Shown: piece after piece, positions 1-33,464 of the stretch
Layout: each line of letters starts with the position of its first letter
Position numbering within the stretch: position 1 is the first letter of the stretch
Program-made: the position numbers and the translations under genes
DNA from: Escherichia coli
Lineage (GTDB): Bacteria; Pseudomonadota; Gammaproteobacteria; Enterobacterales; Enterobacteriaceae
Length of the DNA stretch: 64,000 nucleotides
Assembly: GCF_041886205.1 (NCBI RefSeq)
Contig: NZ_CP169029.1
Reading direction: 5' to 3' (one strand)
Notes under the pieces: generated by a model
What the model saw: only the letters and a program-made list of their open reading frames with translations
What the model was told of the DNA's origin: nothing
Database searches by the model: none

Positions 1-3000
1 CTCTTCAGCCAGCATACCCTTCACCGAACAGACGACCGTACCCAGATCAACACCGGTTTGGGCTGGCGTCATTTCACCCCCAGCTGGATGTCAGGCATCA
101 ACCTGTTTTTTGACCACGACCTGAGCCGCTATCACTCCCGCGCGGGGCTTGGCGCAGAATACTGGCGTGATTATCTCAAGTTAAGCAGCAACGCTTATAT
201 CGGCCTGACCGGCTGGCGTAGCGCACCAGAATTGGATAATGACTTCGAAGCCCGCCCGGCCAACGGTTGGGATTTACGCGCGGAAGGCTGGTTACCTGCC
301 TGGCCACAACTGGGTGGAAAACTGGTCTATGAACAATACTACGGCGATGAAGTGGCGCTGTTTGACAAGAATGATCGCCAAAGTAATCCCCATGCTATTA
401 CCGCGGGCCTCAACTATACCCCCTTCCCGCTTCTGACTCTCAGTGCGGAACAGCGTCAGGGGAAACAAGGTGAAAATGACACACGTTTTGCCGTTGATCT
501 GACCTGGCAACCCAGCAGTTCAATGCAGAAACAGCTTAACCCGGACGAAGTGGCCGGACGGCGCAGTCTGGTCGGTAGTCGTTATGACCTGATTGATCGC
601 AACAACAACATCGTTCTGGAATACCGCAAGAAAGAGCTGATTCGCCTGAGTCTGCTGGATCCGGTGAAAGGGAAGTCTGGAGAAATAAAACCGCTGGTTT
701 CCTCGCTACAGACCAAATATGCCCTGAAAGGCTATAACATCGAAGCCGCTGCGCTGGAAGCTGCCGGAGGTAAAGTCAGCACTTCTGGAAAAGATATCAC
801 GGTCACGCTGCCAGGTTACCGCTTCACTAACACCCCAGAAACCGATAATACATGGTCGATAGACGTTACCGCCGAGGATGTAAAAGGTAACCTGTCACAT
901 CATGAACAAAGCATGGTAGTCATTCAGGCTCCGACATTAAGCCAGAAAGATTCTCTGTTATCCGTTAATCCGCTAACCGTGGCTGCAGATAAAAAATCGA
1001 CGACCACATTGACCGTTACTGCACACGATTCCGACGGAACCCCGGTGCCGGGGCTTGCGCTGCAAACCCGCAGTGAAGGCGTTCAGGACATCACCCTGTC
1101 TGACTGGACAGATAACGGTGATGGTAGTTACACACAGATGCTGACCGCCGGAACGACATCAGGTTCAGTAACACTGACGCCGCAAATTAACGGTGAGAGT
1201 GCGGTAAAAGAATCTATCGTCGTTAATATCGTCCCTGTTGTCTCATCCCGCGACCATTCATCAATAACAATTGATAACGTATCGTATTATGCCGGAGACG
1301 ACATCAAGGTTAGGGTGGAGCTGAAAGACGATAGCAATCAACCGGTTGCATATCAAAAAGAGGAATTGGTAAAAGCCGTTACTGTCGAAAACAGCAAACC
1401 TGGAGCCACGATTGTCTGGCACGAAGAGCTGCCGGGGGTTTATACCGCGAATTATCCGGCCCATAAGCAAGGGACAGCACTAAGGGCACAACTTAGCCTT
1501 CACAACTGGAATGCTCCACTGCAATCGCATATTTATAACATTGAGGCAAACCAGAATAAGGCTCGCGTCGCCACATTATCAGCGACGAATAATGACGTTT
1601 ACGCTGATAAAAAGACATTTAATACCCTCACTATCAACGTCACTGATGAGAGTGATAATCCCCTGACAAATCATCAGGTCACCTTTAAGAATGAAAAAGG
1701 AAGCGCGGAATTTGTCGAACCGCCGCAGCAAAATACGGATGCATATGGTGTTGCCACAATCAACATGGTAAGTCAGGTTGCGGAAGAAAATACGATTAGC
1801 GCCACGCTGCCAAATGGTTTCTCACAACGGATAATTGCGAAATTTGTTAGCGATTCGAGTACGCCAAAATTCAAACAACTGGTTGCCGATCCAGATACCA
1901 TTATTGCTGGCAACAGCCAGGGCAGCACTCTGACCGCCACCGTCACAGACTTTCATAACAACCCATTAAAAGATATGAAAGTGAATTTTGTGGCACCTGG
2001 TGGCTCGCAACTGGACAACACGACCGCCACAACAGACCAGTACGGTATTGTGCGGGTGCATCTGACCAGTTCAAAAGCTGGTAGCTATTCCGTAGATGCC
2101 TCGCTTGAGGCGGATAAAAATATTCACCAGTCGGTCACGATCACCGTGGTCCCAAACAGGGAACAATCGGTAATGACCTTGAATGCCGGGTCGGGCAGTG
2201 CGGTCGCTAACAATACAAATACCGTTACCCTGACTGCCAGTGTGAAAGATGTTTATGGACACCCATTGCCGGATGAGGATGTGAAATTTACCTTGCCAGC
2301 CTCCATGACCGGGAACTTCACGCTAAGTAGTGAAACCGCCCGCACCGATGCAAACGGCGATGCCATGGTCACATTGCGAGGCACAAAAGCGGGTGAGTTT
2401 ACAGTTACGGCGACGCTGACAAGAAATAATACCATTGCTCATCAGCAAGTTTCTTTTATTGGGGATACAAACAGTGCGCAGCTCCAGCCGCTGACTGCCT
2501 CATTAAATACCATTGTTGCGGGTAACAGTACGGGGAGTACCCTGACGGCAACGATCCTGGACGCTTACCAAAATCCGCTTAAAGACCAGCTGGTCACTTT
2601 CCAGAGTAACGATGTCACTCTAAGCGGAACAGAAGTCACCACCAATACGCTGGGTCAGGCGACGGTAACAATGACCAGCAATATTGCCGGACAACATAAC
2701 GTCGTGGTGAGCCGGAAAGCACAAGCCTCCGATAATAAAACGTTTAGTTTATCAGTGCTCCCGGATGAAAGTTCGGCGAAGGTAATAAGTATAACCGGAG
2801 CCGAAAAAACGATAACGGTTGGCGAAAACATCACGCTACGGATACTCGTCCAGGACGCGTTTAACAATGTAATAGCGGGTCAACGTGTCAGATTAAGTGC
2901 GCAGCCAACAGCTCACATTACGATAGGCGATACGGCTTACACCGATAATAACGGTTATGCGTACGTTCACCTTATTAGCACCCAGTCTGGGGTTTATCAG

Positions 3001-4578
3001 GTGACGGCAACGCTGGACAATAACAGTAGTAGTAAGGTTGACGTGAATGTGGCAAATGGCAAACTCGAGTTAACATCATCGAAGCCAGAAACCACGGTCC
3101 ATAACAGTGAGGGTATTACGCTTACCGCAACGGCGAGAAATGCGCGGGATGAATTGATGCCTGGGCAAATTATCACCTTTAGCGTAACGCCTGAAGGTGC
3201 AACGCTAAGCAATACAGGGGAAGTCCTTACTGACCAGTCTGGTCAGGCCAAAGTGACGCTGACCAGTGACAAAGTGAATGTCTATACCGTTACGGCCACA
3301 ATGGGCAAAGATGTTCCCGTTCAGAGCCAGGTAACGGTTGCGGTTAAGGCAGATGCTAAAACGGCACATGTTGTAAGCGTCGTGGCCTCTCCTGACACCA
3401 TAACCGCCGACGGCGTTGATAGCAGCACCGTCACGTCACGAGTAGAAGATGATTACGGATTCCCGGTTGAAGGTGTCGATGTTAGTTATGCCTTAGACAC
3501 CAAAGGTCGCCCGGTTGTTAATATTCCAACTACGCGTACCGATCAATCCGGGCAAGTCACGGCGACAATAACCAGTACATTGGCAGAAACCTTAACAGTC
3601 AATGTGCAAGTTCCTGGTACAGCCAACCAATCCGCAGCTATTACCTTGATTGCCGGCACGGCGGATGAAAGTAAGTCAATTTTGAAATCCGACGTTGGCA
3701 CTCTGATGGCTGACTACCAGCATAGCGCGAAACTTACGCTAACATTGCAAGACAAGTACGGTAACCCGATAGTGACGTCTGATCATCTGGAATTTGTCCA
3801 GTCAGGTCCCTTCGTGAACTTTCTCAAGTTGAGCGATATTGATTACAGCCAAAGAAATTATGGCGAGTACACCGTGACTGTCACTGGCGGAAAAGAGGGA
3901 ACAGCGACTCTCATTCCCATGCTGAACGGGGTTCATCAGGCAAACTTAAGCGTATCGCTGAATCTCATCCGCTCGATAAAAGAAATGTCCGGTCATGTCA
4001 CTGCAAACAACCATACCTTCTCCACGGCTAAATTCCCGAGCGAAGGTTTTGCAGGAGCGTATTACACACTCAACAATGATAACTTTGAAGCGGGTAAAAC
4101 CGTTGATGATTATATGTTTTCAAGTTCACAGAGTTGGGTGTCTGTCGATGCGTCAGGTAAGGTTTCTTTCACAAATATCGGCGATCAAACGTCAGTCACA
4201 ATAAGCGCTGTTCCCCGACAAGGAGGTACAACCTACCAGACCTTAATTAAGCTGAAAGGCTGGTGGGTGAATAATGGAAATCAAACCAATATCTGGCTAA
4301 CTGCCAATGCGCTCTGTCATGCGAAAAATGATGGATATACTCTTCCTGGCATCACACATTTGACGTCTGGCGAAAACAAACGCACGCAGGGATCGCTATA
4401 TGGTGAATGGGGGAACGTTGCAGCGTTTTCCAGTAATTCGCCATTTACACCAGGTGCTTACTGGACAAATGAATCTGATGATTACAATAGGCACTACTAT
4501 GTGCAGATGCTAACGGGTATGACCGGAAGCGACGCTGATTCCAGCCCCCAACTGACCGCCTGCCGTAAATCACTTTAA
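1..4578 (+). CDS. Inverse autotransporter adhesin (intimin/invasin family), 5-prime partial: end of beta-barrel, about 9-10 Big_1 Ig-like repeats, Cys-containing C-terminal domain
   Basis: Frame is open from base 1 (no stop before the listed TTG at 58). N-terminal stretch AEYWRDYLK...ERPANGWDLR...KLVYEQYYGDEVALF resembles the intimin/invasin barrel end; recurring about 100-aa units with motifs such as STLTATVTD..NPL..V.F; stop at 4576-4578. Confidence 0.8.
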   Translation, partial: LFSQHTLHRTDDRTQINTGLGWRHFTPSWMSGINLFFDHDLSRYHSRAGLGAEYWRDYLKLSSNAYIGLTGWRSAPELDNDFEARPANGWDLRAEGWLPAWPQLGGKLVYEQYYGDEVALFDKNDRQSNPHAITAGLNYTPFPLLTLSAEQRQGKQGENDTRFAVDLTWQPSSSMQKQLNPDEVAGRRSLVGSRYDLIDRNNNIVLEYRKKELIRLSLLDPVKGKSGEIKPLVSSLQTKYALKGYNIEAAALEAAGGKVSTSGKDITVTLPGYRFTNTPETDNTWSIDVTAEDVKGNLSHHEQSMVVIQAPTLSQKDSLLSVNPLTVAADKKSTTTLTVTAHDSDGTPVPGLALQTRSEGVQDITLSDWTDNGDGSYTQMLTAGTTSGSVTLTPQINGESAVKESIVVNIVPVVSSRDHSSITIDNVSYYAGDDIKVRVELKDDSNQPVAYQKEELVKAVTVENSKPGATIVWHEELPGVYTANYPAHKQGTALRAQLSLHNWNAPLQSHIYNIEANQNKARVATLSATNNDVYADKKTFNTLTINVTDESDNPLTNHQVTFKNEKGSAEFVEPPQQNTDAYGVATINMVSQVAEENTISATLPNGFSQRIIAKFVSDSSTPKFKQLVADPDTIIAGNSQGSTLTATVTDFHNNPLKDMKVNFVAPGGSQLDNTTATTDQYGIVRVHLTSSKAGSYSVDASLEADKNIHQSVTITVVPNREQSVMTLNAGSGSAVANNTNTVTLTASVKDVYGHPLPDEDVKFTLPASMTGNFTLSSETARTDANGDAMVTLRGTKAGEFTVTATLTRNNTIAHQQVSFIGDTNSAQLQPLTASLNTIVAGNSTGSTLTATILDAYQNPLKDQLVTFQSNDVTLSGTEVTTNTLGQATVTMTSNIAGQHNVVVSRKAQASDNKTFSLSVLPDESSAKVISITGAEKTITVGENITLRILVQDAFNNVIAGQRVRLSAQPTAHITIGDTAYTDNNGYAYVHLISTQSGVYQVTATLDNNSSSKVDVNVANGKLELTSSKPETTVHNSEGITLTATARNARDELMPGQIITFSVTPEGATLSNTGEVLTDQSGQAKVTLTSDKVNVYTVTATMGKDVPVQSQVTVAVKADAKTAHVVSVVASPDTITADGVDSSTVTSRVEDDYGFPVEGVDVSYALDTKGRPVVNIPTTRTDQSGQVTATITSTLAETLTVNVQVPGTANQSAAITLIAGTADESKSILKSDVGTLMADYQHSAKLTLTLQDKYGNPIVTSDHLEFVQSGPFVNFLKLSDIDYSQRNYGEYTVTVTGGKEGTATLIPMLNGVHQANLSVSLNLIRSIKEMSGHVTANNHTFSTAKFPSEGFAGAYYTLNNDNFEAGKTVDDYMFSSSQSWVSVDASGKVSFTNIGDQTSVTISAVPRQGGTTYQTLIKLKGWWVNNGNQTNIWLTANALCHAKNDGYTLPGITHLTSGENKRTQGSLYGEWGNVAAFSSNSPFTPGAYWTNESDDYNRHYYVQMLTGMTGSDADSSPQLTACRKSL

Positions 4579-4649
4579 TTTCTGCAGTTGTTATTAAAGG
4601 ATACCCTTGTGCGAGGGTATCCTTTCCGACTGATAACAAACGCTACATT

Positions 4650-4708
4650 GCCTAATGCGCTGCGCTTATCTGGCCTATATAATCCCTGCAATATATTGAA
4701 TTTATTGT
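4650..4708. repeat. REP-like palindromic element with conserved extension (second copy at about 40085-40142)
   Basis: gcgctgcgcttatctggcctat...cctgcaatatattgaatttattg closely matches gcgctacgcttatcaggcctac...cctgcaatttattgaatttgttg downstream of ridA. Confidence 0.6.
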
Positions 4709-5286
4709 TTTTGTGGCCCAGCCGACATGAACGGCCACTCAAGAAACTCAACAGCAACCGTTGATGTCAGCCAGACCCCGTTTTCCGCTTGCCAGAAAGG
4801 GATGCCTCGTTTCGCCATTTCCTGTGCTTTGACGGTTAAGATAACCGGCGATCCGTGTCTTGCTCCCACTTTGCGTGCCGTTGCTTCATCAGCAGAGAGA
4901 TGTACGTAATGACGCTCCCCTGCAATCAGCCCCTGTTTTTTTATCTCGTCAAGGAAACGGCTTGCCGTACCGTGGTAGAGAAACTGTGGCGGTGTTTTTT
5001 CGGCAAAGGAAATGGCGACCTGCGAAGTCGAATGCCCCTGAACCGCGCGGATGCACCTACCATCACTGGAATAACTAAAACGCTTTTTATCGCTGGTGGC
5101 AACCACAGTATCCAGCAATGCACGGGTTAACCGCTTGCCCGCTTTTTGGGCACAGAGTATAAGCTTATCGATATCCGCCCATCCTTCACGGTCAAGTACG
5201 ATACCAATCGCCTCCGGTTTGTGTCGGAGGACAAAACTTAAAAACTTGCTCGTATCCGCCAGCTCTTTTTCGTTGTACTTTGCCAT
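4702..5286 (-). CDS. kptA: RNA 2'-phosphotransferase KptA (Tpt1 family)
   Basis: Translation [28 protein letters not shown]...[16 protein letters not shown] matches the KptA/Tpt1 family; start chosen at internal Met of the 228-aa ORF. Confidence 0.85.
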
Positions 5287-5523
5287 CTCGTTTTCGTCCC
5301 TGGATTTTCTGTTTTTATTTACTGATGTCATTGTCACTTGGTTTATGAATTTTCTGCAACTCAATCCTGCGCAGAGCCTTTTCCACACAGCGTAATTTTT
5401 CCGCTATGCAAAAAACGCATAGCCAGAAACATACTTGCATTTTCCCCATACCCACATGGCTGATAAGGTTTTTCCGCTCCAGGAATTTTCCTGGCTCAAG
5501 CAACACACAAACACAAAAAAACA

Positions 5524-6219
5524 ATGGGGATTGTTATGACACAACAAGGGGATGCTGTAGCCGGGGAGCTGGCGACAGAAAAAGTGGGCATTAAAGGGTA
5601 TCTGGCTTTTTTTCTCACCATAATCTTTTTTTCCGGTGTTTTTTCCGGGACAGACAGTTGGTGGCGCGTTTTTGATTTTTCCGTTCTGAACGGATCGTTT
5701 GGGCAACTGCCTGGTGCGAATGGAGCCACCACCTCATTTCGCGGGGCGGGTGGCGCGGGGGCTAAAGATGGCTTTCTCTTTGCGCTGGAGCTGGCACCGT
5801 CAGTCATTCTCTCTCTGGGGATTATTTCAATTACCGATGGTCTTGGTGGATTACGCGCCGCGCAGCAGTTAATGACACCTGTGCTAAAACCGTTGTTGGG
5901 CATTCCAGGGATCTGCTCGCTGGCGCTGATCGCTAACCTGCAAAACACGGATGCCGCCGCCGGTATGACCAAAGAGCTGGCGCAGGAAGGTGAAATTACC
6001 GAACGCGATAAAGTGATTTTCGCCGCATATCAAACCAGCGGTAGCGCCATCATCACCAACTACTTCTCTTCCGGCGTCGCGGTGTTTGCCTTTCTGGGCA
6101 CGTCCGTAATCGTACCTTTAGCCGTCATCCTGGTGTTTAAATTTGTCGGAGCCAACATTTTGCGCGTCTGGCTTAACTTCGAAGAACGTCGCAACCCAAC
6201 GCAAGGAGCGCAAGCATGA
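5524..6219 (+). CDS. yjiH: Inner membrane protein YjiH (SpmA-like nucleoside-recognition-domain protein)
   Basis: Hydrophobic 231-aa ORF; position and order yjiH-yjiG-iadA as I recall for K-12; 4-bp overlap with the next gene. Confidence 0.75.
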   Translation: MGIVMTQQGDAVAGELATEKVGIKGYLAFFLTIIFFSGVFSGTDSWWRVFDFSVLNGSFGQLPGANGATTSFRGAGGAGAKDGFLFALELAPSVILSLGIISITDGLGGLRAAQQLMTPVLKPLLGIPGICSLALIANLQNTDAAAGMTKELAQEGEITERDKVIFAAYQTSGSAIITNYFSSGVAVFAFLGTSVIVPLAVILVFKFVGANILRVWLNFEERRNPTQGAQA

Positions 6220-6677
6220 CAACTCAGGTCCGCAAAAATGTCATGGATATGTTTATCGATGGTGCGCGCCGTGGCTTTACTATCGCCACGACCAACCTGC
6301 TGCCAAACGTGGTGATGGCGTTTGTCATCATTCAGGCGCTGAAAATTACCGGCCTGCTCGACTGGGTGGGGCATATCTGTGAACCCGTAATGGCGCTGTG
6401 GGGATTACCCGGTGAAGCGGCAACCGTCCTTTTAGCCGCATTAATGAGTATGGGCGGCGCAGTCGGTGTTGCCGCCAGTCTGGCGACCGCCGGCGCATTA
6501 ACCGGTCACGATGTCACCGTTTTACTGCCCGCGATGTATTTAATGGGCAACCCGGTGCAAAATGTCGGTCGCTGCCTGGGGACAGCCGAAGTGAATGCCA
6601 AATATTACCCGCATATCATTACGGTCTGCGTGATTAACGCATTGCTGTCGATCTGGGTTATGCAGCTTATTGTTTAA
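6216..6677 (+). CDS. yjiG: Inner membrane protein YjiG (SpmB-like)
   Basis: 153-aa membrane ORF translationally coupled to yjiH and followed by iadA. Confidence 0.75.
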   Translation: MTTQVRKNVMDMFIDGARRGFTIATTNLLPNVVMAFVIIQALKITGLLDWVGHICEPVMALWGLPGEAATVLLAALMSMGGAVGVAASLATAGALTGHDVTVLLPAMYLMGNPVQNVGRCLGTAEVNAKYYPHIITVCVINALLSIWVMQLIV

Positions 6678-6689
6678 CAAGGAGTTACC

Positions 6690-7862
6690 ATGATTGATTA
6701 TACCGCAGCCGGTTTTACCCTGCTGCAGGGAGCGCATTTGTATGCGCCGGAAGATCGGGGAATTTGCGATGTCCTCGTCGCTAACGGCAAAATTATCGCC
6801 GTTGCCAGCAATATCCCTTCTGACATTGTACCGGACTGCACGGTTGTCGATCTCAGCGGGCAGATCCTCTGTCCTGGTTTTATTGATCAACACGTCCATT
6901 TGATTGGTGGTGGCGGTGAAGCAGGTCCCACGACGCGCACGCCAGAAGTGGCGCTAAGTCGCCTGACGGAAGCGGGCGTCACGTCAGTGGTTGGTCTGCT
7001 GGGCACCGACTCTATCTCTCGCCACCCGGAATCCCTGCTCGCCAAGACCCGTGCGCTCAATGAAGAAGGCATCAGCGCCTGGATGCTGACCGGCGCTTAT
7101 CATGTCCCTTCCCGCACCATTACAGGTTCCGTGGAAAAAGACGTGGCGATTATCGATCGTGTGATTGGCGTGAAATGCGCCATCTCTGATCACCGTTCTG
7201 CCGCACCGGACGTTTATCACCTGGCTAATATGGCGGCGGAATCCCGCGTTGGCGGTTTGCTCGGCGGTAAACCTGGCGTCACCGTGTTCCACATGGGCGA
7301 CAGCAAAAAGGCGTTACAGCCTGTCTATGACCTGCTGGAAAACTGCGATGTGCCGATCAGCAAGTTGCTGCCGACCCACGTTAACCGCAACGTTCCGTTG
7401 TTTGAGCAGGCGCTGGAGTTCGCGCGCAAAGGCGGCACTATCGATATCACCAGCAGCATTGACGAACCGGTCGCCCCTGCCGAAGGTATTGCGCGCGCCG
7501 TTCAGGCGGGTATTCCGCTGGCACGCGTCACCCTCAGCTCCGACGGCAACGGTAGCCAGCCGTTCTTCGATGACGAAGGGAATTTAACCCATATCGGTGT
7601 TGCCGGTTTTGAAACGTTGCTGGAAACCGTGCAGGTGCTGGTCAAAGACTATGATTTCAGTATCAGCGATGCCCTGCGCCCGCTCACCAGTAGCGTAGCC
7701 GGTTTCCTTAACCTGACCGGGAAAGGCGAAATTCTGCCAGGCAATGATGCTGACTTGCTGGTCATGACGCCAGAACTGCGCATTGAGCAGGTATACGCTC
7801 GCGGCAAACTGATGGTCAAAGACGGCAAAGCCTGCGTGAAAGGAACGTTTGAAACGGCTTAA
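6690..7862 (+). CDS. iadA: Isoaspartyl dipeptidase (amidohydrolase superfamily)
   Basis: 390 aa; metal-binding HxH motif near N-terminus (FIDQHVHLIGGGGE); RBS aggag upstream; K-12 synteny. Confidence 0.85.
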   Translation: MIDYTAAGFTLLQGAHLYAPEDRGICDVLVANGKIIAVASNIPSDIVPDCTVVDLSGQILCPGFIDQHVHLIGGGGEAGPTTRTPEVALSRLTEAGVTSVVGLLGTDSISRHPESLLAKTRALNEEGISAWMLTGAYHVPSRTITGSVEKDVAIIDRVIGVKCAISDHRSAAPDVYHLANMAAESRVGGLLGGKPGVTVFHMGDSKKALQPVYDLLENCDVPISKLLPTHVNRNVPLFEQALEFARKGGTIDITSSIDEPVAPAEGIARAVQAGIPLARVTLSSDGNGSQPFFDDEGNLTHIGVAGFETLLETVQVLVKDYDFSISDALRPLTSSVAGFLNLTGKGEILPGNDADLLVMTPELRIEQVYARGKLMVKDGKACVKGTFETA

Positions 7863-7926
7863 ACGGTTGTCAGCCGCCCGAATGGACGTAGAATGCCCGC
7901 AAGGGCGGCTGACAGAGTAAAACGTA

Positions 7927-8763
7927 ATGGATGACTGTGGTGCGATTTTGCATAATATTGAAACCAAATGGCTTTATGATTTTCTGACCCTGGAAAAATG
8001 CCGCAATTTTTCCCAGGCGGCAGTCAGTCGCAACGTCTCGCAACCGGCATTCAGCCGCCGCATCCGTGCGCTGGAACAGGCGATTGGTGTTGAATTGTTT
8101 AACCGCCAGGTAACGCCGCTGCAACTCTCAGAACAAGGGAAAATCTTCCATTCGCAGATCCGCCATCTGTTGCAACAGTTAGAGAGCAATCTGGCAGAGC
8201 TGCGTGGCGGCAGCGATTACGCGCAACGAAAAATCAAGATAGCCGCTGCACACTCTCTTTCCCTCGGGCTGTTACCGTCCATTATCAGCCAGATGCCGCC
8301 GCTCTTTACCTGGGCAATTGAAGCTATTGATGTCGATGAAGCGGTCGATAAACTGCGTGAAGGGCAAAGTGACTGTATTTTTTCCTTTCACGACGAAGAT
8401 TTGCTGGAAGCGCCGTTTGACCACATTCGCTTATTTGAATCTCAATTGTTCCCTGTCTGCGCCAGTGACGAACACGGAGAAGCACTTTTTAACCTCGCGC
8501 AGCCACACTTTCCGTTACTGAATTACAGCCGCAACTCCTACATGGGGCGATTGATTAATCGCACCCTGACGCGCCACAGTGAGTTAAGTTTCAGCACCTT
8601 TTTTGTCTCTTCGATGAGCGAGCTTTTAAAGCAGGTTGCCCTCGACGGCTGTGGGATTGCCTGGCTGCCGGAGTACGCCATCCAACAAGAAATTCGCAGC
8701 GGGAAGCTCGTTGTACTGAATCGGGACGAACTGGTGATCCCGATTCTGGCCTATGCATACTGA
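7927..8763 (+). CDS. hypT: LysR-family regulator HypT (YjiE), apparently truncated by an in-frame TGA; 24 further sense codons continue to a second stop at 8836-8838
   Basis: N-terminal HTH typical of LysR regulators; ORF ends ...ILAYAY then TGA, followed in frame by [24 protein letters not shown] and a stop. Confidence 0.75.
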   Translation: MDDCGAILHNIETKWLYDFLTLEKCRNFSQAAVSRNVSQPAFSRRIRALEQAIGVELFNRQVTPLQLSEQGKIFHSQIRHLLQQLESNLAELRGGSDYAQRKIKIAAAHSLSLGLLPSIISQMPPLFTWAIEAIDVDEAVDKLREGQSDCIFSFHDEDLLEAPFDHIRLFESQLFPVCASDEHGEALFNLAQPHFPLLNYSRNSYMGRLINRTLTRHSELSFSTFFVSSMSELLKQVALDGCGIAWLPEYAIQQEIRSGKLVVLNRDELVIPILAYAY

Positions 8764-8830
8764 ATGAATACCCGCATGAATCCAGTTGCCGAACGCTTCT
8801 GGCGTGAACTGCGCGAGCTGGAGATTGTAC

Positions 8831-9223
8831 TTAGCTGACATTCTCCAGCGTCGCACTACGCCAACCGCCATTATCCCAGACCAGATCAAACGTTAGCGGT
8901 TCATCGTCGTGGTACAGCATTATCTCAAGGCTGATCGCCAGCGTGTGACTGTACGCTTCTTTCAGATTGACCTGCAACGCCGCAATCCGTGGCTCATGAA
9001 ATAACAGTGCAGAACGCAGCTGACGGCAATACCAGCTCTGGAGATGTTTGTCGCTCTGGTTATGCACTTGCCACTCGGGCATGCCTGAAACAAGTAATGA
9101 CGGTAATGCCGAAAGAGGAGAATTAAAAAGAGTGAGGAGATCGCTGCATACCGATTTACGCAGCAATGACGTTTTATTGCCTGAAATTTTAGGTAAAACA
9201 GCCTGAAGTGATTGGCGCATCAT
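8831..9223 (-). CDS. iraD: Anti-adapter protein IraD (YjiD)
   Basis: About 130-aa ORF convergent with hypT; sequence [11 protein letters not shown]... as recalled for IraD; K-12 synteny. Confidence 0.75.
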
Positions 9224-14578: not shown

Positions 14579-14740
14579 GATTTTTCCTCTTTCACATAGT
14601 GGGTTCCACAGCAAAGAGACGCGGAACCCTGGAGTTGTTTAGGTATCCGGATGAACAACCAGACCGCAGCCGTGGCGTTGCATCGGATGAGATGGCGTAT
14701 AAGTTCTACCTTTTGGTAAGACATGTCAACCCGAATTCTG

Positions 14741-14864
14741 AAATTGGTTAACCACATCACAAGAAATCAACTCTATTGCTGGTTGATGCAAATGACAACA
14801 AAGGAGAAGCGGCGGTTAGTAATCGGGGGATGTGACATTCATCGCAATAATGGTTGACCAATTT
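14741..14864. promoter_or_regulatory. uxuAB control region with two UxuR/ExuR-operator-like palindromes
   Basis: aaattggttaaccacat (14741-14757) and tggttgaccaattt (14851-14864), near-palindromes around TGGTTAACCA, upstream of uxuA. Confidence 0.55.
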
Positions 14865-14972
14865 ACATAACGTGTCGCCCAAAATAACAATGGATTAACC
14901 TACTCCCCCATTGCATAAGTTGTGACCGACACAACAAAACTGATGTTGTTGCAAAGATTGCTATTTAGTTTT

Positions 14973-14987
14973 GGTATAAAAGGTATA
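14973..14987. promoter_or_regulatory. NanR-operator-like GGTATA direct repeats upstream of nanM
   Basis: ggtataaaaggtata about 50 bp upstream of the nanM start; NanR is known to bind GGTATA repeats. Confidence 0.45.
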
Positions 14988-15036
14988 CAGGCACATGGTG
15001 CGACATTTGAATTCCAGCGATCAGGAGTAATTCACA

Positions 15037-17846: not shown

Positions 17847-17992
17847 AGAGAATGTCCTTATACGTTCTCAGAACAAGCAGCAAAAAAACAAATGAGATCA
17901 AAGTAATATATCTTCACTTGCAGGCTTGAACAGCAGAAAATTTGCGAGCATGATCGCAATTATTTCACTGCCAGGGAGGTAATGACTCCAAC

Positions 17993-18496
17993 TTATTGAT
18001 AGTGTTTTATGTTCAGATAATGCCCGATGACTTTGTCATGCAGCTCCACCGATTTTGAGAACGACAGCGACTTCCGTCCCAGCCGTGCCAGGTGCTGTCT
18101 CAGATTCAGGTTATGCCGCTCAATTCGCTGCGTATATCGCTTGCTGATTACGTGCAGCTTTCCCTTCAGGCGGGATTCATACAGCGGCCAGCCATCCGTC
18201 ATCCATATCACCACGTCAAAGGGTGACAGCAGGCTCATAAGACGCCCCAGCGTCGCCATAGTGCGTTCACCGAATACGTGCGCAACAACCGTCTTCCGGA
18301 GCCTGTCATACGCGTAAAACAGCCAGCGCTGGCGCGATTTAGCCCCGACATAGCCCCACTGTTCGTCCATTTCCGCGCAGACGATGACGTCACTGCCCGG
18401 CTGTATGCGCGAGGTTACCGACTGCGGCCTGAGTTTTTTAAATGGCGGAAAATCGTGTTGAGGCCAACGCCCATAATGCGGGCGGTTGCCCGGCAT
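17993..18496 (-). CDS. insB: IS1 transposase InsB reading frame (expressed as InsAB' by -1 frameshift)
   Basis: 167-aa [19 protein letters not shown]...DGWPLYE... overlapping the insA 3-prime end in the -1 frame, as in IS1. Confidence 0.9.
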
Positions 18497-18690
18497 CCAA
18501 CGCCATTCATGGCCATATCAATGATTTTCTGGTGCGTACCGGGTTGAGAAGCGGTGTAAGTGAACTGCAGTTGCCATGTTTTACGGCAGTGAGAGCAGAG
18601 ATAGCGCTGATGTCCGGCGGTGCTTTTGCCGTTACGCACCACCCCGTCAGTAGCTGAACAGGAGGGACAGCTGATAGAAACAGAAGCCAC
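18415..18690 (-). CDS. insA: IS1 protein InsA
   Basis: 91-aa [46 protein letters not shown]..., the IS1 InsA zinc-finger protein. Confidence 0.95.
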
Positions 18691-18745
18691 TGGAGCACCT
18701 CAAAAACACCATCATACACTAAATCAGTAAGTTGGCAGCATCACC

Positions 18746-19057
18746 CAGCAAACGAACCTGGATGATTTGCCGGATAAAGCCAGCATCATTGACGCGTTTT
18801 TTACCTTTGCTCAACGCGAACAGCAACGTGAAGCAGAAGCCTTGATCAAAGAAGAAAATCTCAATGAAGAGGCGGCGAAACGCTATATTCGCACGTCTTT
18901 AAAACGCGAATACGCCACCGAAAATGGCACGGAATTAAACGAGACATTGCCAAAACTCAGTCCGTTAAATCCGCAATATAAGACGAAAAAACAGACGGTT
19001 TTCCAGAAGATCGTCGCGTTTATTGAGAAGTTTAAAGGTGTAGGCGGGCAGATATAA
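18746..19057 (+). pseudogene. 3-prime remnant of a larger gene truncated at its 5-prime end by IS1; encoded tail is charged and helical
   Basis: Reading frame is open from the IS1 boundary with no start context (first listed codon is TTG); peptide ...[37 protein letters not shown]...[15 protein letters not shown]. Confidence 0.6.
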
Positions 19058-19240
19058 TGTATTAATCCGAACCTGATCTGGCAGATAGCTGTCAGATCAG
19101 GACTGAGCTAATACAAATTAATGTCGAACCGAAAATACCAACGCCTGTACCAACATTTTTCGTTTGCGATGGGTTGGAATTGGTTAGCCCTGAGAGAGTT
19201 AAAATAGCGAGAAAGATAGGTAACTAACGGATTTCAGACA

Positions 19241-19268
19241 CAAAAAAAGCCGCTCTTGAGCGGCTCGA
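19241..19268 (-). terminator. Rho-independent terminator of leuX
   Basis: On the minus strand gagccgctcaagagcggc hairpin followed by a T-run immediately 3-prime of the tRNA. Confidence 0.7.
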
Positions 19269-19281
19269 TTTGCATACGGTG

Positions 19282-19366
19282 TGGTGCCGAAGGCCGGACT
19301 CGAACCGGCACGTATTTCTACGGTTGATTTTGAATCAACTGCGTCTACCGATTTCGCCACTTCGGC
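19282..19366 (-). tRNA. leuX: tRNA-Leu (CAA), leuX
   Basis: Reverse complement reads GCCGAAGTGGCGAAATCGGTAGACGCAGTTGATTCAAAATCAACCGTAGAAATACGTGCCGGTTCGAGTCCGGCCTTCGGCACCA with CAA anticodon loop and encoded CCA end. Confidence 0.95.
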
Positions 19367-19561
19367 ACTGAAGAGGTATGCGGAAAACGTTGTGGATTAT
19401 ACCTGTCGCACGCCACCATGCAAGCGCCAGCTTGCTCGCACCTCGCTAAGTGCTGAAATTTTCAGCATTGCATACAGCGATGTGTAACCTTTGTCACACT
19501 CCAGGCACCCCGCCCTGCCATGCTCTACACTTCCCAGACCACACCAGAGAAGGACCAAAAA

Positions 19562-20581
19562 ATGTCGATGATAAGAAGCTATGCCGCAAAAGAAGCGGGC
19601 GGCGAACTGGAAGTTTATGAGTACGATCCCGGTGAGCTGAAGCCACAAGATATTGAAGTGCAGGTGGATTACTGCGGGATCTGCCATTCCGATCTGTCGA
19701 TGATCGATAACGAATGGGGATTTTCACAATATCCGCTGGTTGCCGGGCATGAGGTGATTGGGCGCGTGGTGGCACTCGGGAGCGCCGCGCAGGATAAAGG
19801 TTTGCAGGTCGGTCAGCGTGTCGGGATTGGCTGGACGGCGCGTAGCTGTGGTCACTGCGACGCCTGTATTAGCGGTAATCAGATCAACTGCGAGCAAGGT
19901 GCGGTGCCAACAATTATGAATCGCGGCGGTTTTGCCGAGAAGTTGCGTGCGGACTGGCAATGGGTGATTCCACTGCCAGAAAATATTGATATCGAGTCCG
20001 CCGGGCCGCTGTTGTGCGGCGGTATCACGGTCTTTAAACCACTGTTGATGCACCATATCACTGCTACCAGCCGCGTTGGGGTAATTGGTATTGGCGGGCT
20101 GGGGCATATCGCTATAAAACTTCTGCACGCAATGGGATGCGAGGTGACAGCCTTTAGTTCGAATCCGGCGAAAGAGCAGGAAGTGCTGGCGATGGGTGCC
20201 GATAAAGTGGTGAATAGCCGCGATCCGCAGGCACTCAAAGCACTGGCGGGGCAGTTTGATCTCATTATCAATACTGTGAACGTCAGCCTCGACTGGCAGC
20301 CTTATTTTGAGGCGCTGACCTATGGCGGTAATTTCCATACGGTCGGTGCGGTTCTCACGCCGCTGTCTGTTCCGGCCTTTACGTTAATTGCGGGCGATCG
20401 CAGCGTCTCTGGTTCTGCTACCGGCACGCCTTATGAGCTGCGTAAGCTGATGCGTTTTGCCGCCCGCAGCAAGGTTGCGCCGACTACCGAACTGTTCCCG
20501 ATGTCGAAAATTAACGACGCCATTCAGCATGTACGCGATGGTAAAGCGCGCTACCGAGTGGTCCTGAAAGCCGACTTCTGA
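19562..20581 (+). CDS. ahr: NADPH-dependent aldehyde reductase Ahr (YjgB), zinc-dependent alcohol dehydrogenase family
   Basis: Translation from [21 protein letters not shown]...; Zn-ADH motifs (GICHSD, GHEVIG) and Rossmann GIGGLGH. Confidence 0.9.
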
Positions 20582-20710
20582 TCCCTTTGCCGGGTGCCTG
20601 TCGCCCGGCACTTAAATCTCTTTGGAAGGCATCTCGCAATCTGCTTAATTTAGCGGTGAAGAGTGCATAGCCGTTGCCTATACTCCAGGCAGGAAACTGG
20701 AGGAAATCTC

Positions 20711-22213
20711 ATGAGTGAACCCCTGTTAATTGCCCGCACGCCGGACACAGAACTGTTTTTACTGCCGGGAATGGCTAACCGTCACGGGCTGATTACTGGC
20801 GCAACGGGGACGGGTAAAACTGTCACGCTGCAAAAACTGGCGGAGTCTCTATCGGAAATCGGTGTTCCGGTGTTTATGGCCGATGTGAAAGGCGATCTGA
20901 CCGGCGTCGCGCAGGCAGGAACGGCGTCGGAAAAACTGCTCGCAAGGCTTAAAAATATCGGCGTCAATGACTGGCAACCGCATGCCAATCCGGTGGTGGT
21001 GTGGGATATCTTTGGCGAGAAAGGCCATCCGGTGCGGGCGACGGTTTCGGATCTGGGGCCGCTGTTGCTGGCGCGGCTGTTGAATCTCAACGATGTGCAA
21101 TCTGGCGTGCTGAATATCATCTTCCGCATTGCTGACGATCAGGGGCTGTTACTGCTCGACTTTAAAGATTTGCGGGCGATTACCCAGTACATCGGCGATA
21201 ACGCCAAATCTTTCCAGAATCAGTACGGTAATATCAGTAGCGCATCGGTTGGTGCCATCCAGCGCGGATTACTGTCGCTGGAACAGCAAGGCGCAGCACA
21301 CTTCTTTGGTGAGCCGATGCTGGATATCAAAGACTGGATGCGCACCGATGCCAACGGTAAAGGCGTTATCAATATCCTCAGCGCCGAGAAACTTTATCAG
21401 ATGCCGAAACTGTACGCCGCCAGCCTGCTGTGGATGCTTTCAGAGTTGTATGAACAATTGCCGGAAGCGGGCGATCTGGAGAAACCAAAACTGGTGTTTT
21501 TCTTCGACGAGGCACATCTGCTGTTTAACGATGCACCGCAGGTACTGCTGGATAAGATTGAGCAGGTGATAAGGCTTATTCGCTCAAAAGGCGTGGGCGT
21601 CTGGTTCGTTTCGCAAAACCCGTCTGATATTCCGGATAATGTGCTCGGCCAGCTCGGTAATCGCGTTCAGCACGCTTTGCGGGCTTTTACGCCCAAAGAT
21701 CAGAAAGCAGTGAAGGCAGCGGCGCAAACCATGCGGGCCAATCCGGCATTTGATACCGAAAAGGCAATCCAGGAACTGGGGACCGGCGAGGCGTTAATCT
21801 CGTTTCTCGATGCAAAAGGAAGTCCTTCTGTGGTGGAACGGGCGATGGTGATTGCGCCTTGTTCGCGGATGGGACCGGTGACGGAAGATGAGCGCAATGG
21901 CTTGATTAATCACTCTCCGGTGTATGGCAAGTACGAGGATGACGTGGACCGGGAATCCGCCTATGAGATGTTGCAAAAAGGCTTTCAGGCCAGTACCGAG
22001 CAGCAAAATAATCCTCCCGCGAAAGGGAAAGAGGTGGCGGTGGATGACGGTATTCTTGGTGGATTGAAGGATATTTTGTTTGGCACTACCGGACCACGCG
22101 GCGGGAAGAAAGATGGTGTGGTGCAAACAATGGCGAAAAGCGCCGCCCGCCAGGTGACGAATCAGATTGTACGCGGGATGTTGGGGAGTTTGCTGGGGGG
22201 GAGAAGAAGGTAA
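20711..22213 (+). CDS. yjgR: P-loop NTPase YjgR (DUF853 family)
   Basis: Translation from [11 protein letters not shown]...; Walker A GATGTGKT; about 500 aa. Confidence 0.8.
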
Positions 22214-22373
22214 GTCAGGCGCGATTTGTCTTTGCCTGATGCGACGCTGGCGCGTCTTATCATGCCTACACCACTGCAACATATTGGATTTTCATGATTT
22301 TTCAGGCATGAACGAAGCACACTTTGCTAACAATAATAAAGGGAGCTTTAGCTCCCTTTATTCGTTCATCAGG

Positions 22374-23456
22374 TTACGATTTTCTCATTAACAGCCACAG
22401 GCTGATTAAGAAGAAGCTGGCGCTTGGCAACAGTGCGCCAATGATCGGCGGGATGCCGTAAACCAACGTCAGCGGGCCGAAGATCTGGTCCAGTACGTAG
22501 AAGACAAAACCGAAGCTGATACCGGTGACCACACGCACACCCATCGGTACGCTACGCAGTGGGCCAAAGATGAACGACAGCGCCATCAGCATCATCACCG
22601 CCACGGATAGCGGCTGGAAGATTTTGCTCCACATGTTGAGCTGATAACGTCCGGCATCCTGACCGCTCGACTTCAGATACTTCACGTAGTTGTGCAAACC
22701 GCTGATTGAGAGTGCATCCGGGTCCAGCGCCACCACGCCCAGTTTGTCTGGCGTGAGGTTGGTTTTCCAGGTGCCGCTCACCGTCTGCGAACCGGTGATC
22801 TGTTTCGGATTGGTCAGATCAGATTCATCAACCTGCGACAGACGCCAGACTTTATGTTCCGGGTCAAACTTCGCGGTAGCGGCATAGCGTACGGATTGCA
22901 GACGACGATTCTCGTTAAAGGCATAAATACTGATGCCACCTAACTCTTCGTCACCTTTAACCCGCTCAATGTAGACGAAGTTGTTGCCATCTTTCGCCCA
23001 TAAACCTTGCTGGGTAGAGAGCAACGAGCCACCGTACATCGCCTGCGCACGGTAGTTACGCGCCATCTGCTCGCCCTGCGGCGCGACCCATTCACCAATC
23101 GCCATCGTCAGTAAGACCAGCGGAATGGCGGTTTTCATCACCGACAGCGCAACCTGCATACGGGTGAAACCAGAAGCCTGCATCACCACCAGTTCGCTGC
23201 GCTGCGCCAGCATCCCAAGACCAAGCAACGCCCCAAGCAGAGCCGCCATCGGGAAGAATATTTGCACATCTTTCGGCACGCTCAGCAAGGTATACATTCC
23301 TGCGCCTAACGCGTCGTAACTCCCCTGCCCGGCTTTTTTCAGCTGATCGACAAATTTGATAATGCCCGACAGCGACACCAGCATGAACAGCGTCATCATG
23401 ATGGTGGTGAAAATAGTTTTACCGATATAGCGGTCAAGTACGCCAAAAGGTTGCAT
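22374..23456 (-). CDS. lptG: LPS export ABC transporter permease LptG
   Basis: 360-aa membrane protein MQPFGVLDRYIGKTIF...; overlaps the stop of the upstream lptF. Confidence 0.9.
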   Translation of the reverse strand: MQPFGVLDRYIGKTIFTTIMMTLFMLVSLSGIIKFVDQLKKAGQGSYDALGAGMYTLLSVPKDVQIFFPMAALLGALLGLGMLAQRSELVVMQASGFTRMQVALSVMKTAIPLVLLTMAIGEWVAPQGEQMARNYRAQAMYGGSLLSTQQGLWAKDGNNFVYIERVKGDEELGGISIYAFNENRRLQSVRYAATAKFDPEHKVWRLSQVDESDLTNPKQITGSQTVSGTWKTNLTPDKLGVVALDPDALSISGLHNYVKYLKSSGQDAGRYQLNMWSKIFQPLSVAVMMLMALSFIFGPLRSVPMGVRVVTGISFGFVFYVLDQIFGPLTLVYGIPPIIGALLPSASFFLISLWLLMRKS

Positions 23457-29910: not shown

Positions 29911-29939
29911 AAGGCCGGAGCATGCTCCGGCCTTTTTTA
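29911..29939. terminator. Bidirectional rho-independent terminator between valS and yjgN
   Basis: aaggccggagcatgctccggcctt perfect hairpin followed by tttttt, preceded by A-rich stretch. Confidence 0.8.
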
Positions 29940-29943
29940 TCTC

Positions 29944-31140
29944 TTACAGAAATGGTAAAGAAGGCATAACTCCCCGTGAAATACTGGCTAATAAGCCTTT
30001 ATCTGGTTGTTCTTCTTTATTGATTAAAGGAAGGTCATCCAAATCGCCCAGCAAATACGTATTTTTTGCCTGCCAGTCAATCATCCATATTTTCAGCAGT
30101 GGATAAGCCAGACCGCCCGTAATCCCGGATATCACTACCAACGCACACATGCGATAAAGCATACCGTGGTAAGTTAAAGTTGAGCGAAAACGAATACGCC
30201 CATCATTCAGTGACAGGTTGCTCATAAAATGATTTCGCAACGACACCGTTAAATAACTGGTGCTAACAGCAATCCCAAAATAATAGATTAACTGCGCGAT
30301 TATCATTTTACGTTGCACTTCCATAAATTGCTGTAAATTCTCAATATCATCATTTGCATACACAGAACTATAATACTCATTTAATATTTGATCGAAGATA
30401 ATATAACCAGCAACAGCGAGAAAAGGTAATAAAGCTAAAAATGCGAGGATGGCATATTTTATACAATACGCAGTATCTAATTTCACCTTGAAACGATGTA
30501 TACCGAAACTGGTATTGCTCCAGAGAAAACTCATTACCAGGCTATATAAAGTACCATTAAAAATACCAATGGAAACAATACCAACTATTGCCATCAGAAC
30601 CACAGATATAATAACACTACTTGAACTATTGGCATGTAGCATCTTTGTCGAGATAAAGAAAACAGTCCCCATCCCAATGGCCATTAAAATCGGCAAGAAA
30701 AAGGTTACCCACCAGAACCCTTTCATAGAGCAATTAAAACTAAATCTTACGCCGTTGAGACTGGTCATCAAGGCCTGATAACGCAGTCCTTTTGCTGCCA
30801 TAAATATAAGCAAAACCAACAGTGACAAAGTCAAAACACAGCCAACAAGCGGCATATCTGCTGACACTGTCATTAAGATTGCGAAATAGAAAAAAACAAA
30901 AACAAGACAACTAACAAAAACATTCCCACCAGTAATTCCATAAGAAAATCGTTGTCCGTTAACTTCCATATTAGCATAGAGATAACGCTTACATTTCATT
31001 AATGCCCATGGTAAATAGATACCTAGCGTTATAATCGTCAACAACACATTCACCACACAAATAAGAAAATATCTCTCACCTGTACCATGAAAAACAAACG
31101 AATGGGACGGAACATCCATTTCATTAATAACTTGAGCCAT
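29944..31140 (-). CDS. yjgN: Inner membrane protein YjgN (DUF898 family), low-GC gene
   Basis: About 398-aa polytopic membrane ORF with AT-rich codon usage; position between valS and yjgM as in K-12. Confidence 0.75.
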   Translation of the reverse strand: MAQVINEMDVPSHSFVFHGTGERYFLICVVNVLLTIITLGIYLPWALMKCKRYLYANMEVNGQRFSYGITGGNVFVSCLVFVFFYFAILMTVSADMPLVGCVLTLSLLVLLIFMAAKGLRYQALMTSLNGVRFSFNCSMKGFWWVTFFLPILMAIGMGTVFFISTKMLHANSSSSVIISVVLMAIVGIVSIGIFNGTLYSLVMSFLWSNTSFGIHRFKVKLDTAYCIKYAILAFLALLPFLAVAGYIIFDQILNEYYSSVYANDDIENLQQFMEVQRKMIIAQLIYYFGIAVSTSYLTVSLRNHFMSNLSLNDGRIRFRSTLTYHGMLYRMCALVVISGITGGLAYPLLKIWMIDWQAKNTYLLGDLDDLPLINKEEQPDKGLLASISRGVMPSLPFL

Positions 31141-31332
31141 AAAAATTCCCTGAATTAAAAAATCCATTGATATAATTTATAGATACAGACAGTAAAATGT
31201 TCTGCCACGTTACAATACTCTTATCAGTAATAGGCTGGCAAAAACTTTATTACTTTATAAGTCGCTTGCGCACGTAAGAAGAGAGTGGTATTAAACATAT
31301 GTATAATTACTTTATTTTTATTGGGTTAAACT

Positions 31333-31836
31333 ATGAATAACATTGCGCCGCAATCATCTGTAATGCGTCGCCTGACGTTGCAGGATAATCCTGCTATCGC
31401 CCGCGTCATTCGTCAGGTATCCGCCGAATACGGTCTTACCGCTGATAAAGGCTACACCGTCGCCGATCCGAACCTTGACGAGTTGTATCAAGTGTATAGT
31501 CAGCCTGGCCATGCATATTGGGTGGTTGAGTTCGATGGTGAAGTGGTCGGCGGCGGTGGGATTGCGCCATTAGCAGGTAGTGAATCGGACATTTGCGAAC
31601 TGCAAAAGATGTATTTTCTTCCGGCTATTCGCGGTAAAGGGCTGGCGAAAAAACTGGCCTTAATGGCGATGGAGCAGGCACGAGAGATGGGCTTCAAACG
31701 CTGCTATCTGGAAACGACCGCTTTTTTAAAGGAAGCCATTGCGCTTTATGAGCATTTGGGCTTTGAGCATATCGACTATGCGCTTGGCTGCACGGGCCAT
31801 GTCGATTGTGAAGTGCGGATGCTACGCGAACTCTAA
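31333..31836 (+). CDS. yjgM: GNAT-family N-acetyltransferase YjgM
   Basis: 167 aa; acetyl-CoA binding motif region ([21 protein letters not shown]). Confidence 0.8.
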
Positions 31837-31881
31837 AAAAATGCCCGCTAGTGTGTGCTATCGGGCATTTTAATCAATTAA

Positions 31882-32298
31882 TTAGTGGCGAACCCCGTCA
31901 TCGTCTTCGTCGACAAAATCTTCATCGTCGCCGTCTTCGCCGTTAGGATCTTCAAAGTAAGTGCCCCAACCATCGTACTCAACGTCAAATTTCTCCGCCA
32001 GCGTCATCAGTTGTTCAACCTGGGCATCGATCAGATCGGCATTCAACGCGCACTCGCTGAGGATGTCGCAGCAAATCACGATGTCACCATCTTCAACTTC
32101 CAGCTCTTCTGGATCGGTCACTTCGTAACCGAGTTTAAACGCTTCAACTGCTGCTTTTTCCAGGGTTTCCAGATCGTCTGCGGAAAGATGGTGTTCGATG
32201 GTGTACAGCGCGTCCGGATCGCTGCCATCTTCCAGTAATTCTTCAATAATCAAACGTGTTTCTTCACGCTGTTCTTCCAGTTGTTCCGGGTTTGCCAT
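31882..32298 (-). CDS. rraB: Regulator of ribonuclease activity B (RraB)
   Basis: 138 aa, strongly acidic C-terminus ([20 protein letters not shown]); adjacent to argI. Confidence 0.85.
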
Positions 32299-32394
32299 GG
32301 CTCATTCCTCTTAATGTCCTGCCGATACTCTTATTGTCACACACCACTGACATTGCCTCCACCTTTGTGACAAAGATTTATGCTTTAGACTTGC

Positions 32395-32433
32395 AAATGA
32401 ATAATCATCCATATAAATTGAATTTTAATTCAT
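32395..32433. promoter_or_regulatory. argI operator: two tandem ARG boxes (ArgR binding sites)
   Basis: aaatgaataatcatccat and aaattgaattttaattcat fit the ARG-box pattern TNTGAAT(W4)ATTCANW; preceded by ttgcaa -35-like hexamer. Confidence 0.7.
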
Positions 32434-32459
32434 TGAGGCGATAGCCACAGGAGGGATCT

Positions 32460-33464
32460 ATGTCCGGGTTTTATCATAAGCATTTCCTGAAATTACTCGA
32501 TTTCACGCCAGCTGAACTCAACAGCCTGTTGCAGTTAGCCGCGAAGCTGAAAGCCGATAAGAAAAGCGGTAAAGAAGAAGCCAAACTCACTGGTAAAAAC
32601 ATCGCGCTCATCTTCGAAAAAGACTCGACCCGTACCCGATGCTCTTTCGAAGTTGCCGCATATGACCAAGGTGCTCGCGTTACTTATCTCGGCCCAAGCG
32701 GCAGCCAGATTGGTCATAAAGAGTCGATTAAAGACACTGCCCGCGTGCTTGGTCGCATGTATGACGGTATTCAGTATCGCGGCTATGGTCAGGAGATTGT
32801 CGAAACACTGGCGGAATACGCTGGCGTGCCGGTATGGAACGGCCTGACCAATGAGTTTCACCCCACGCAGCTGCTGGCGGATCTTCTCACCATGCAGGAG
32901 CATTTACCCGGCAAAGCGTTCAACGAAATGACGCTGGTCTATGCAGGTGACGCACGTAACAACATGGGCAATTCGATGCTCGAAGCTGCGGCGCTTACCG
33001 GTCTGGATTTGCGTCTGGTCGCGCCACAGGCATGCTGGCCGGAAACTGCGCTGGTTACGGAATGCCGCGCTCTGGCACAGCAAAATGGCGGGAATATTAC
33101 GCTAACGGAAGATGTAGCCAAAGGAGTTGAAGGTGCTGACTTTATCTATACCGATGTGTGGGTGTCGATGGGGGAAGCAAAAGAGAAATGGGCAGAACGC
33201 ATTGCATTACTGCGTGATTATCAGGTGAACAGCAAGATGATGCAGTTGACCGGTAACCCGGAGGTCAAATTCCTCCACTGCCTGCCCGCGTTTCATGACG
33301 ACCAAACGACGCTTGGCAAGAAAATGGCGGAAGAGTTTGGCCTACATGGCGGAATGGAAGTGACTGATGAGGTCTTCGAATCTGCCGCCAGCATTGTATT
33401 TGATCAGGCGGAAAACCGCATGCATACCATCAAAGCGGTGATGGTCGCGACGCTCAGTAAATAA
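32460..33464 (+). CDS. argI: Ornithine carbamoyltransferase
   Basis: 334 aa; carbamoyl-phosphate motif STRTR and ornithine-binding HCLP motif. Confidence 0.9.

Follow-up and report, generated by a model that had tools for sequence, protein, structure and literature searches.

In Escherichia coli K-12, the genes for L-idonate use (idnK and idnDOTR) are located between ahr and yjgR. In the E. coli DNA analyzed here, a stretch of 64,000 nucleotides referred to below as the window, the two flanking genes are direct neighbors. The question raised by this locus is whether the idn genes were deleted from it in the lineage of the window, or whether the short spacer between ahr and yjgR is an inherited state of the site.

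Gene content of the ahr–yjgR interval and its distribution in E. coli

The ahr gene (yjgB; positions 19562–20581, + strand) encodes an intact NADPH-dependent aldehyde reductase of 339 aa, which contains the Pfam domains ADH_N and ADH_zinc_N; its open frame reaches upstream as far as position 19520. BLAST comparison showed that the product is 99.1% identical to K-12 Ahr over 339 aa, and the gene is named ahr in the annotation of the matching genomes. The yjgR gene (20711–22213, + strand) is also intact and encodes a HerA-like/DUF853 P-loop protein of 500 aa (Pfam HerA_C, E = 2e-254) with 99.6% identity to its K-12 counterpart. With ahr ending at 20581, stop codon included, and yjgR starting with its ATG at 20711, the spacer is exactly 129 bp long (20582–20710, + strand), in agreement with the original prediction that the two genes are adjacent and about 130 bp apart. 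This spacer takes the place of the slot for idnK-idnDOTR in K-12. Both genes are intact and lie on the same strand with only the short spacer between them, and the spacer shows end-to-end homology to those of other idn-less Escherichia and Citrobacter; on these grounds we assign the window to the “empty” allele of the locus. The core genes of the window are approximately 98.1–98.4% identical to those of K-12, indicating that the window is derived from E. coli proper, and the closest complete genome is that of strain ET201.

In the annotated K-12 record, the gene order is yjgR-idnR-idnT-idnO-idnD-idnK-ahr-leuX (b4263–b4270). The placement of idnK and idnDOTR between ahr and yjgR in K-12, which the original prediction had stated, was therefore right, and a contiguous ahr–yjgR arrangement in K-12 is ruled out. 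None of the five genes of the GntII / L-idonate system (idnK, idnD, idnO, idnT and idnR) was found in the 64-kb window by tblastn with the five K-12 Idn proteins or by blastn with the 5,087-bp K-12 idn segment, and the same searches found no idn coding remnants at the slot or elsewhere in the window. The sole matches to the Idn queries were distant (21–33% identity) and were located outside the ahr–yjgR gap or inside ahr. The strain from which the window comes is thus not expected to grow on L-idonate or 5-ketogluconate via the GntII pathway, and the main value of the observation lies in annotation and in this phenotype prediction. Use of L-idonate and 5-ketogluconate has been proposed as a gut-colonization advantage in E. 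coli (PMC8545132), and in Salmonella the idonate trait has been linked to fitness in intestinal infection of farm animals (PMC6138749).

The empty allele is the majority state of the locus, present in approximately 59% of complete E. coli genomes. A 429-bp junction probe, scored as contiguous when at least 80% of the 429 bp was covered, was contiguous in 3,214 of 5,426 complete genomes, including those of O157:H7 and Seattle 1946, and a 2.9-kb ahr–yjgR probe was contiguous in 3,212 of the same 5,426. The K-12 idn segment was detected in 2,055 genomes (~38%), usually in one copy and never on a plasmid; in all of the idn+ genomes listed, the match to the junction probe starts at query position 241 (window position 20672). 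Roughly 160 genomes belonged to neither class, and at least two of these begin matching inside the spacer. Strain Z22-6, the one of these that was examined, represents a rare third state, in which most of ahr has been deleted in an empty-allele background; a 187-bp ahr remnant (8784–8970 of its locus) is left beside leuX, and a dptFGH island lies across leuX.

The idnODRKT genes have been treated as accessory before, with a frequency of 83% in pks-positive and about 31% in pks-negative E. coli and with variation inside ST95 (PMC8545132). The accessory status of idn is thus already in the literature, and because the window shares its state with most complete E. coli genomes, the finding in itself is not novel; the state is ordinary and opens no new question. 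What is mildly new is that both alleles occur with matching junctions in Escherichia and Citrobacter, while the diversity of the E. coli cassette is low.

On the other side of ahr, just upstream of the gene, leuX, encoding tRNA-Leu(CAA) (19282–19366, − strand; ARAGORN, and 59.4 bits with the Rfam tRNA model), is a neighboring site of island integration. The original prediction had placed a second accessory-gene boundary next to the leuX region, and the gene order together with the presence or absence of idn in the population bears this out. An IS1 copy (Pfam DDE_Tnp_IS1) at 17978–18745 is located where ET201 has a leuX island of roughly 10 kb that carries a type I restriction–modification system, AbiE and other genes. 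Of hsdR, the final ~310 bp remain at 18746–19057 and adjoin IS1, so that an IS1-associated deletion appears to have taken out most of the leuX island. Further away, uxuA and nanM are neighbors at about 14579–15036, as in ET201. In K-12, this interval presumably holds nanC, the whole fim operon and gntP; other matched strains show fimD and gntP there, and the type 1 fimbriae cluster appears to be absent between uxuA and nanM in the window. Two other variable segments interrupt a region that is otherwise ~98% identical: 31878–34478, which is 91% identical to K-12 and lies near the argI/yjgL region of that strain, and 29937–31384, which is unmatched in ET201 and lies near a yjgN-family gene of ET201. 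A low block identity to K-12 of 95.4% stems from the far side of leuX.

Structure of the spacer and its boundaries

BLAST alignment showed that homology to K-12 ends together with the ahr stop codon, at 20581, and restarts at 20672, 39 nt upstream of the yjgR ATG. The intervening 90 bp (20582–20671, + strand) are specific to the empty allele and are replaced in K-12 by 5,087 bp (record positions 4490103–4495189). A search of 16 kb of K-12 sequence and of eight further idn+ alleles found no counterpart of these 90 bp. The K-12 matches to the 90 bp were mostly scattered stretches of 9–14 nt that resemble chance matches, and they were set aside, with the exception of a 9-mer at the junction. This 9-mer belongs to the motif TC(C/T)CTTTGCCGG, which directly follows the ahr stop codon (20582–20593, + strand) and recurs at the yjgR-proximal end of the idn segment. 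The motif is shared with the E. coli idn+ alleles as a 9-nt match for the window type and a 12-nt match for the O157 type; in a shuffle test, a common substring of at least 9 nt was obtained in 17 of 20,000 trials, and one of at least 12 nt in 0 of 20,000. The (TCT)CTTTGCCGG motif, which is on the left in the empty spacer and on the right in the idn segment, probably marks the point of cassette insertion.

A terminator scan detected a G+C-rich hairpin with a 9-bp stem and a 5-nt loop, followed by a moderately U-rich tail, at 20588–20610 (+ strand). The hairpin folds at −21 kcal/mol (z −2.3) and is likely to be an intrinsic terminator of ahr; in the idn+ alleles, the left arm of the ahr-proximal hairpin is truncated. 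Closer to yjgR, a 20-nt block, AATTTAGCGGTGAAGAGTGC (20647–20666, + strand), is missing from the idn+ alleles, is identical in Citrobacter werkmanii and differs by one base in Escherichia albertii. We presume that the block is a regulatory element upstream of yjgR. The pattern CGCAA-N7-AATT(T/G)A-N19-GGTTGCC, as read by eye, also has the same spacing in Enterobacter and Leclercia sequences.

The 39 nt at 20672–20710 (+ strand) are common to all of the aligned alleles and form the right-hand boundary of the variable slot. They contain the sequence CGTTGCC, a −10-like TATACT (20679–20684), a GGAGGA ribosome-binding site and an inverted repeat, CTCCAG/CTGGAG, at 20683–20688 and 20697–20702. The repeat region (20683–20704) overlaps the GGAGGA Shine–Dalgarno sequence of yjgR, and its Citrobacter version is CTCCA...TGGAG; the inverted repeat may form a hairpin for translational control. 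An Rfam scan of 19000–23000 yielded nothing in the spacer, the tRNA alone passing the threshold. A sigma-70 promoter scan of 20400–20900 gave no match, so the yjgR promoter was not located, and a manual check for the consensus sequences of other sigma factors produced nothing convincing. Downstream of yjgR, two REP-like repeats (22233–22265 and 22335–22362) were observed, the first of which has a sub-threshold match to the Rfam family naRNA4 (28.7 bits against a gathering score of 59.5). These repeats probably account for the many extra BLAST places per genome that were obtained with the ahr–yjgR probe.

Origin of the empty and the idn-bearing alleles

We consider it very probable that the window carries the native empty allele, either inherited directly or at most replaced by another empty allele, that the idn-bearing allele is derived, and that no fresh deletion from a K-12-type locus took place. 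Whether the idn genes were ancestrally absent or had been deleted was left open by the original prediction; the evidence favors an inherited empty allele, and not a lineage-specific deletion. The native ahr–yjgR region would consist of a hairpin that probably ends ahr transcription, the conserved block upstream of yjgR and the ribosome-binding region, and idnK-idnDOTR would be an accessory cassette that occupies the slot in a minority of E. coli. In the simplest reading, a lower-GC cassette of ~5.07 kb entered the site right behind the ahr stop codon, the idn-bearing allele lost 78 nt of the spacer (window 20594–20671), and the idn haplotype would later have spread in E. coli via recombination with short flanks. 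Since the 90 bp that are lacking in the K-12 type cannot come from a deletion, all forerunners of the window's allele would have been empty as well.

A comparison with the Enterobacter/Leclercia allele, in which a dak gene fills the slot, bears on whether the cassette was originally gained or lost. When the sequences were lined up ungapped from the shared boundary, the 60 nt preceding it were identical at 21–26 of 60 positions between the empty and the dak allele (z 1.8–3.3), a weak similarity among pairs that are not independent. The same 60 nt in the idn allele matched neither the empty nor the dak allele (8–17 of 60 identical). The empty allele thus appears to have kept the native region upstream of yjgR. 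The anchored comparison replaced a gapped global alignment of the empty and dak alleles, in which z was 0.7–3.4. The G+C content of the idn cassette is 47.3%, compared with 54–56% in the flanks. The ends of the K-12 cassette carry no terminal repeats of at least 7 nt and no recombinase gene is annotated in the cassette, so the cassette was not classed as an island borne by a mobile element.

Nucleotide diversity was estimated in 8 idn+ and 8 empty genomes, a small sample chosen from a ranking by flank identity. In this sample, π was 0.72% (maximum 1.1%) for the idn cassette, 2.8–3.2% for ahr, 3.7–5.1% for yjgR, 1.3–1.5% for lptG and 3.6% for the empty-specific 90 bp. The cassette of 1,973 of the 2,055 idn carriers is at least 99% identical to that of K-12, and between K-12 and UPEC 536 the identity switches at the cassette edges (95.6% in ahr, 99.3% in the cassette and 96.4% in yjgR). 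Linkage to the cassette was confined to the final ~120 nt of ahr, where π was 1.1% among idn+ and 4.5% among empty genomes, dxy was 5.3%, and two fixed differences separated the two classes. The low diversity of the cassette relative to its flanks suggests that it spread later by recombination with short flanks. Taken together, the similarity to the outgroup, the G+C content, the shared motif, the diversity and the linkage suggest that, in E. coli, the empty allele was resident at the site before the idn allele.

Sequences from other species bear on the age of both alleles. The cross-genus comparison of the slot covered at least eight Enterobacterales loci, with Salmonella, E. fergusonii and Klebsiella outside the sample. 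The whole spacer of the window aligns with the 129-bp ahr–yjgR spacer of E. albertii and the 136-bp one of C. werkmanii; in the latter, a hairpin of different sequence is present at the same place behind ahr. Of eight C. werkmanii places examined, seven were empty and one was filled with N. In Citrobacter CP069762.1, the apparent 5.1 kb in the slot was found to be a run of 5,136 N (2825–7960 of the locus), and this sequence was dismissed as uninformative. Its YjgR and that of the C. werkmanii type strain are identical, and the locus has further runs of N, one of them upstream of ahr; it resembles an assembly with N-filled gaps, and the base adjacent to the boundary is of the idn-allele type (ATTGCC). 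Citrobacter sp. FP75 carries ahr-idnK-idnDOTR-yjgR, with a right junction homologous to that of K-12 and a left boundary at the ahr stop codon. Between K-12 and FP75, dS was 1.2–2.8 for the idn genes and 1.0–1.3 for ahr and yjgR. Because the divergence of the idn genes matches or exceeds that of the flanks, the idn allele is old as well, and not the product of a recent transfer between Escherichia and Citrobacter.

The matching boundaries in E. coli and FP75, with a divergence equal to or above that of the flanks, are also what would be seen if the idn-bearing arrangement were the original state in Escherichia and Citrobacter, possibly also in Salmonella, with a single ancient and precise loss giving rise to the empty allele and a later loss of 78 nt from the idn alleles. 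Salmonella Typhimurium has idnD (STM4484), and 6 of 6 Typhi strains lack idnDOTK (PMC6138749), which would fit such a loss; our literature search on Salmonella gene order found nothing for STM4480, STM4481, STM4485 or STM4486. The hairpin, too, could equally have been the terminator of idnDOTR, because it would lie downstream of these genes in the same orientation. We nevertheless regard an ancestral idn arrangement as unlikely. It needs a deletion that started exactly at the ahr stop codon and left a functional hairpin, followed by a second event, and it is at odds with the G+C content of the cassette, which is below that of the flanks, with a cassette that is far less diverse in E. coli than the empty spacer and the flanks, and with the uniformly empty state of E. 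albertii (10 of 10 further places examined).

The native empty allele could also have reached the lineage of the window secondarily, if an ancestor that carried idn lost it through homologous recombination with DNA of an idn-less strain; the allele would then be old and the absence of idn secondary. Recombination is intense at this locus. The flanking genes ahr and yjgR are mosaic and do not cluster by phylogroup; grouping by the presence of idn was likewise rejected, so the history of the window lineage itself is not readable from the flanks. The window and ET201 differ at 46 positions in 18748–20563 and at none in 20564–23030, which indicates that a recombination breakpoint lies no more than about 20 nt from the ahr stop codon, and the presence of idn varies even inside ST95 (PMC8545132). 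Polymorphism among E. coli is unusually high at the 3′ end of ahr, where the last 220 nt show up to 22 differences. Raised divergence from K-12 beside the junction was looked for as well, and was absent in ahr and noisy in yjgR. Against a replacement, the past of the lineage shows no positive sign of idn, ET201 is likewise empty with an identical spacer, and the 3′ end of the window ahr is closest to those of other empty strains (5 differences, compared with 11–21 for idn+ strains). We judge a secondary loss of this kind to be quite improbable.

A deletion of the idn operon from a K-12-type locus in the lineage of the window, although idn is at the site in K-12 and 38% of genomes and Z22-6 shows that deletions do happen here, is most improbable and was rejected, because a deletion joins only pre-existing sequences and the junction of the window does not join two sequences that are both present in an idn-bearing allele, because 20582–20671 has no counterpart in K-12 or the eight other idn+ alleles and is conserved in E. 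albertii and C. werkmanii, and because the 64-kb window holds no idn remnants.

For either allele, the junctions match between the two genera and the divergence is about like that of the flanks. We tentatively propose, with a confidence a little short of even, that the locus is an ancient presence/absence polymorphism whose two alleles had a single origin each, dating to about the Escherichia–Citrobacter split or earlier. The E. coli idn cassette would then be a low-diversity unit that has been recombined across phylogroups, and dak would be a third cargo of the same slot. The locus neatly illustrates, on a small scale, how an accessory operon and its empty site can coexist beside a tRNA island hotspot.

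Comparison with corresponding loci

The K-12 GntII locus resembles the window in having ahr, yjgR, leuX, lptG and lptF in the same order and orientation, with a DNA identity of 97–98% in ahr and yjgR and about 98% over the rest of the common region. It differs in carrying the 5,087-bp idnK-idnDOTR segment in place of the 90 bp of the window. The idn-less E. coli strains O157:H7 FRIK2069, Seattle 1946 and ET201 share with the window the 129-bp spacer, the hairpin and the conserved block, and differ from it by single-base polymorphisms only. The spacer of the window is the same as that of ET201 and shows at most 6 differences in 129 positions (4.65%) from those of the seven other empty genomes sampled, whereas its ahr haplotype is 2.8% from that of ET201.

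The spacers of E. albertii and C. werkmanii, like that of the window, have a hairpin next to the end of ahr as well as the 20-nt block and the 39-nt leader of yjgR, but they are separated from it by species-level divergence (flank dS of 0.5 and 1.2, respectively), and the hairpin sequence of C. werkmanii differs. In Enterobacter cloacae, Enterobacter sp. Ag1 and Leclercia, a Dak1/Dak2 gene occupies the ahr–yjgR slot. As in the window, the ahr stop codon and GTTGCCTATACT upstream of yjgR delimit the slot of E. cloacae and Leclercia adecarboxylata, and a weak, spacing-preserving similarity to the window persists in the 60 nt that precede the GTTGCCTATACT boundary. In these two species, unlike in the window, the slot is filled by a gene on the opposite strand that encodes a 548-aa Dak1/Dak2 dihydroxyacetone-kinase-like protein.
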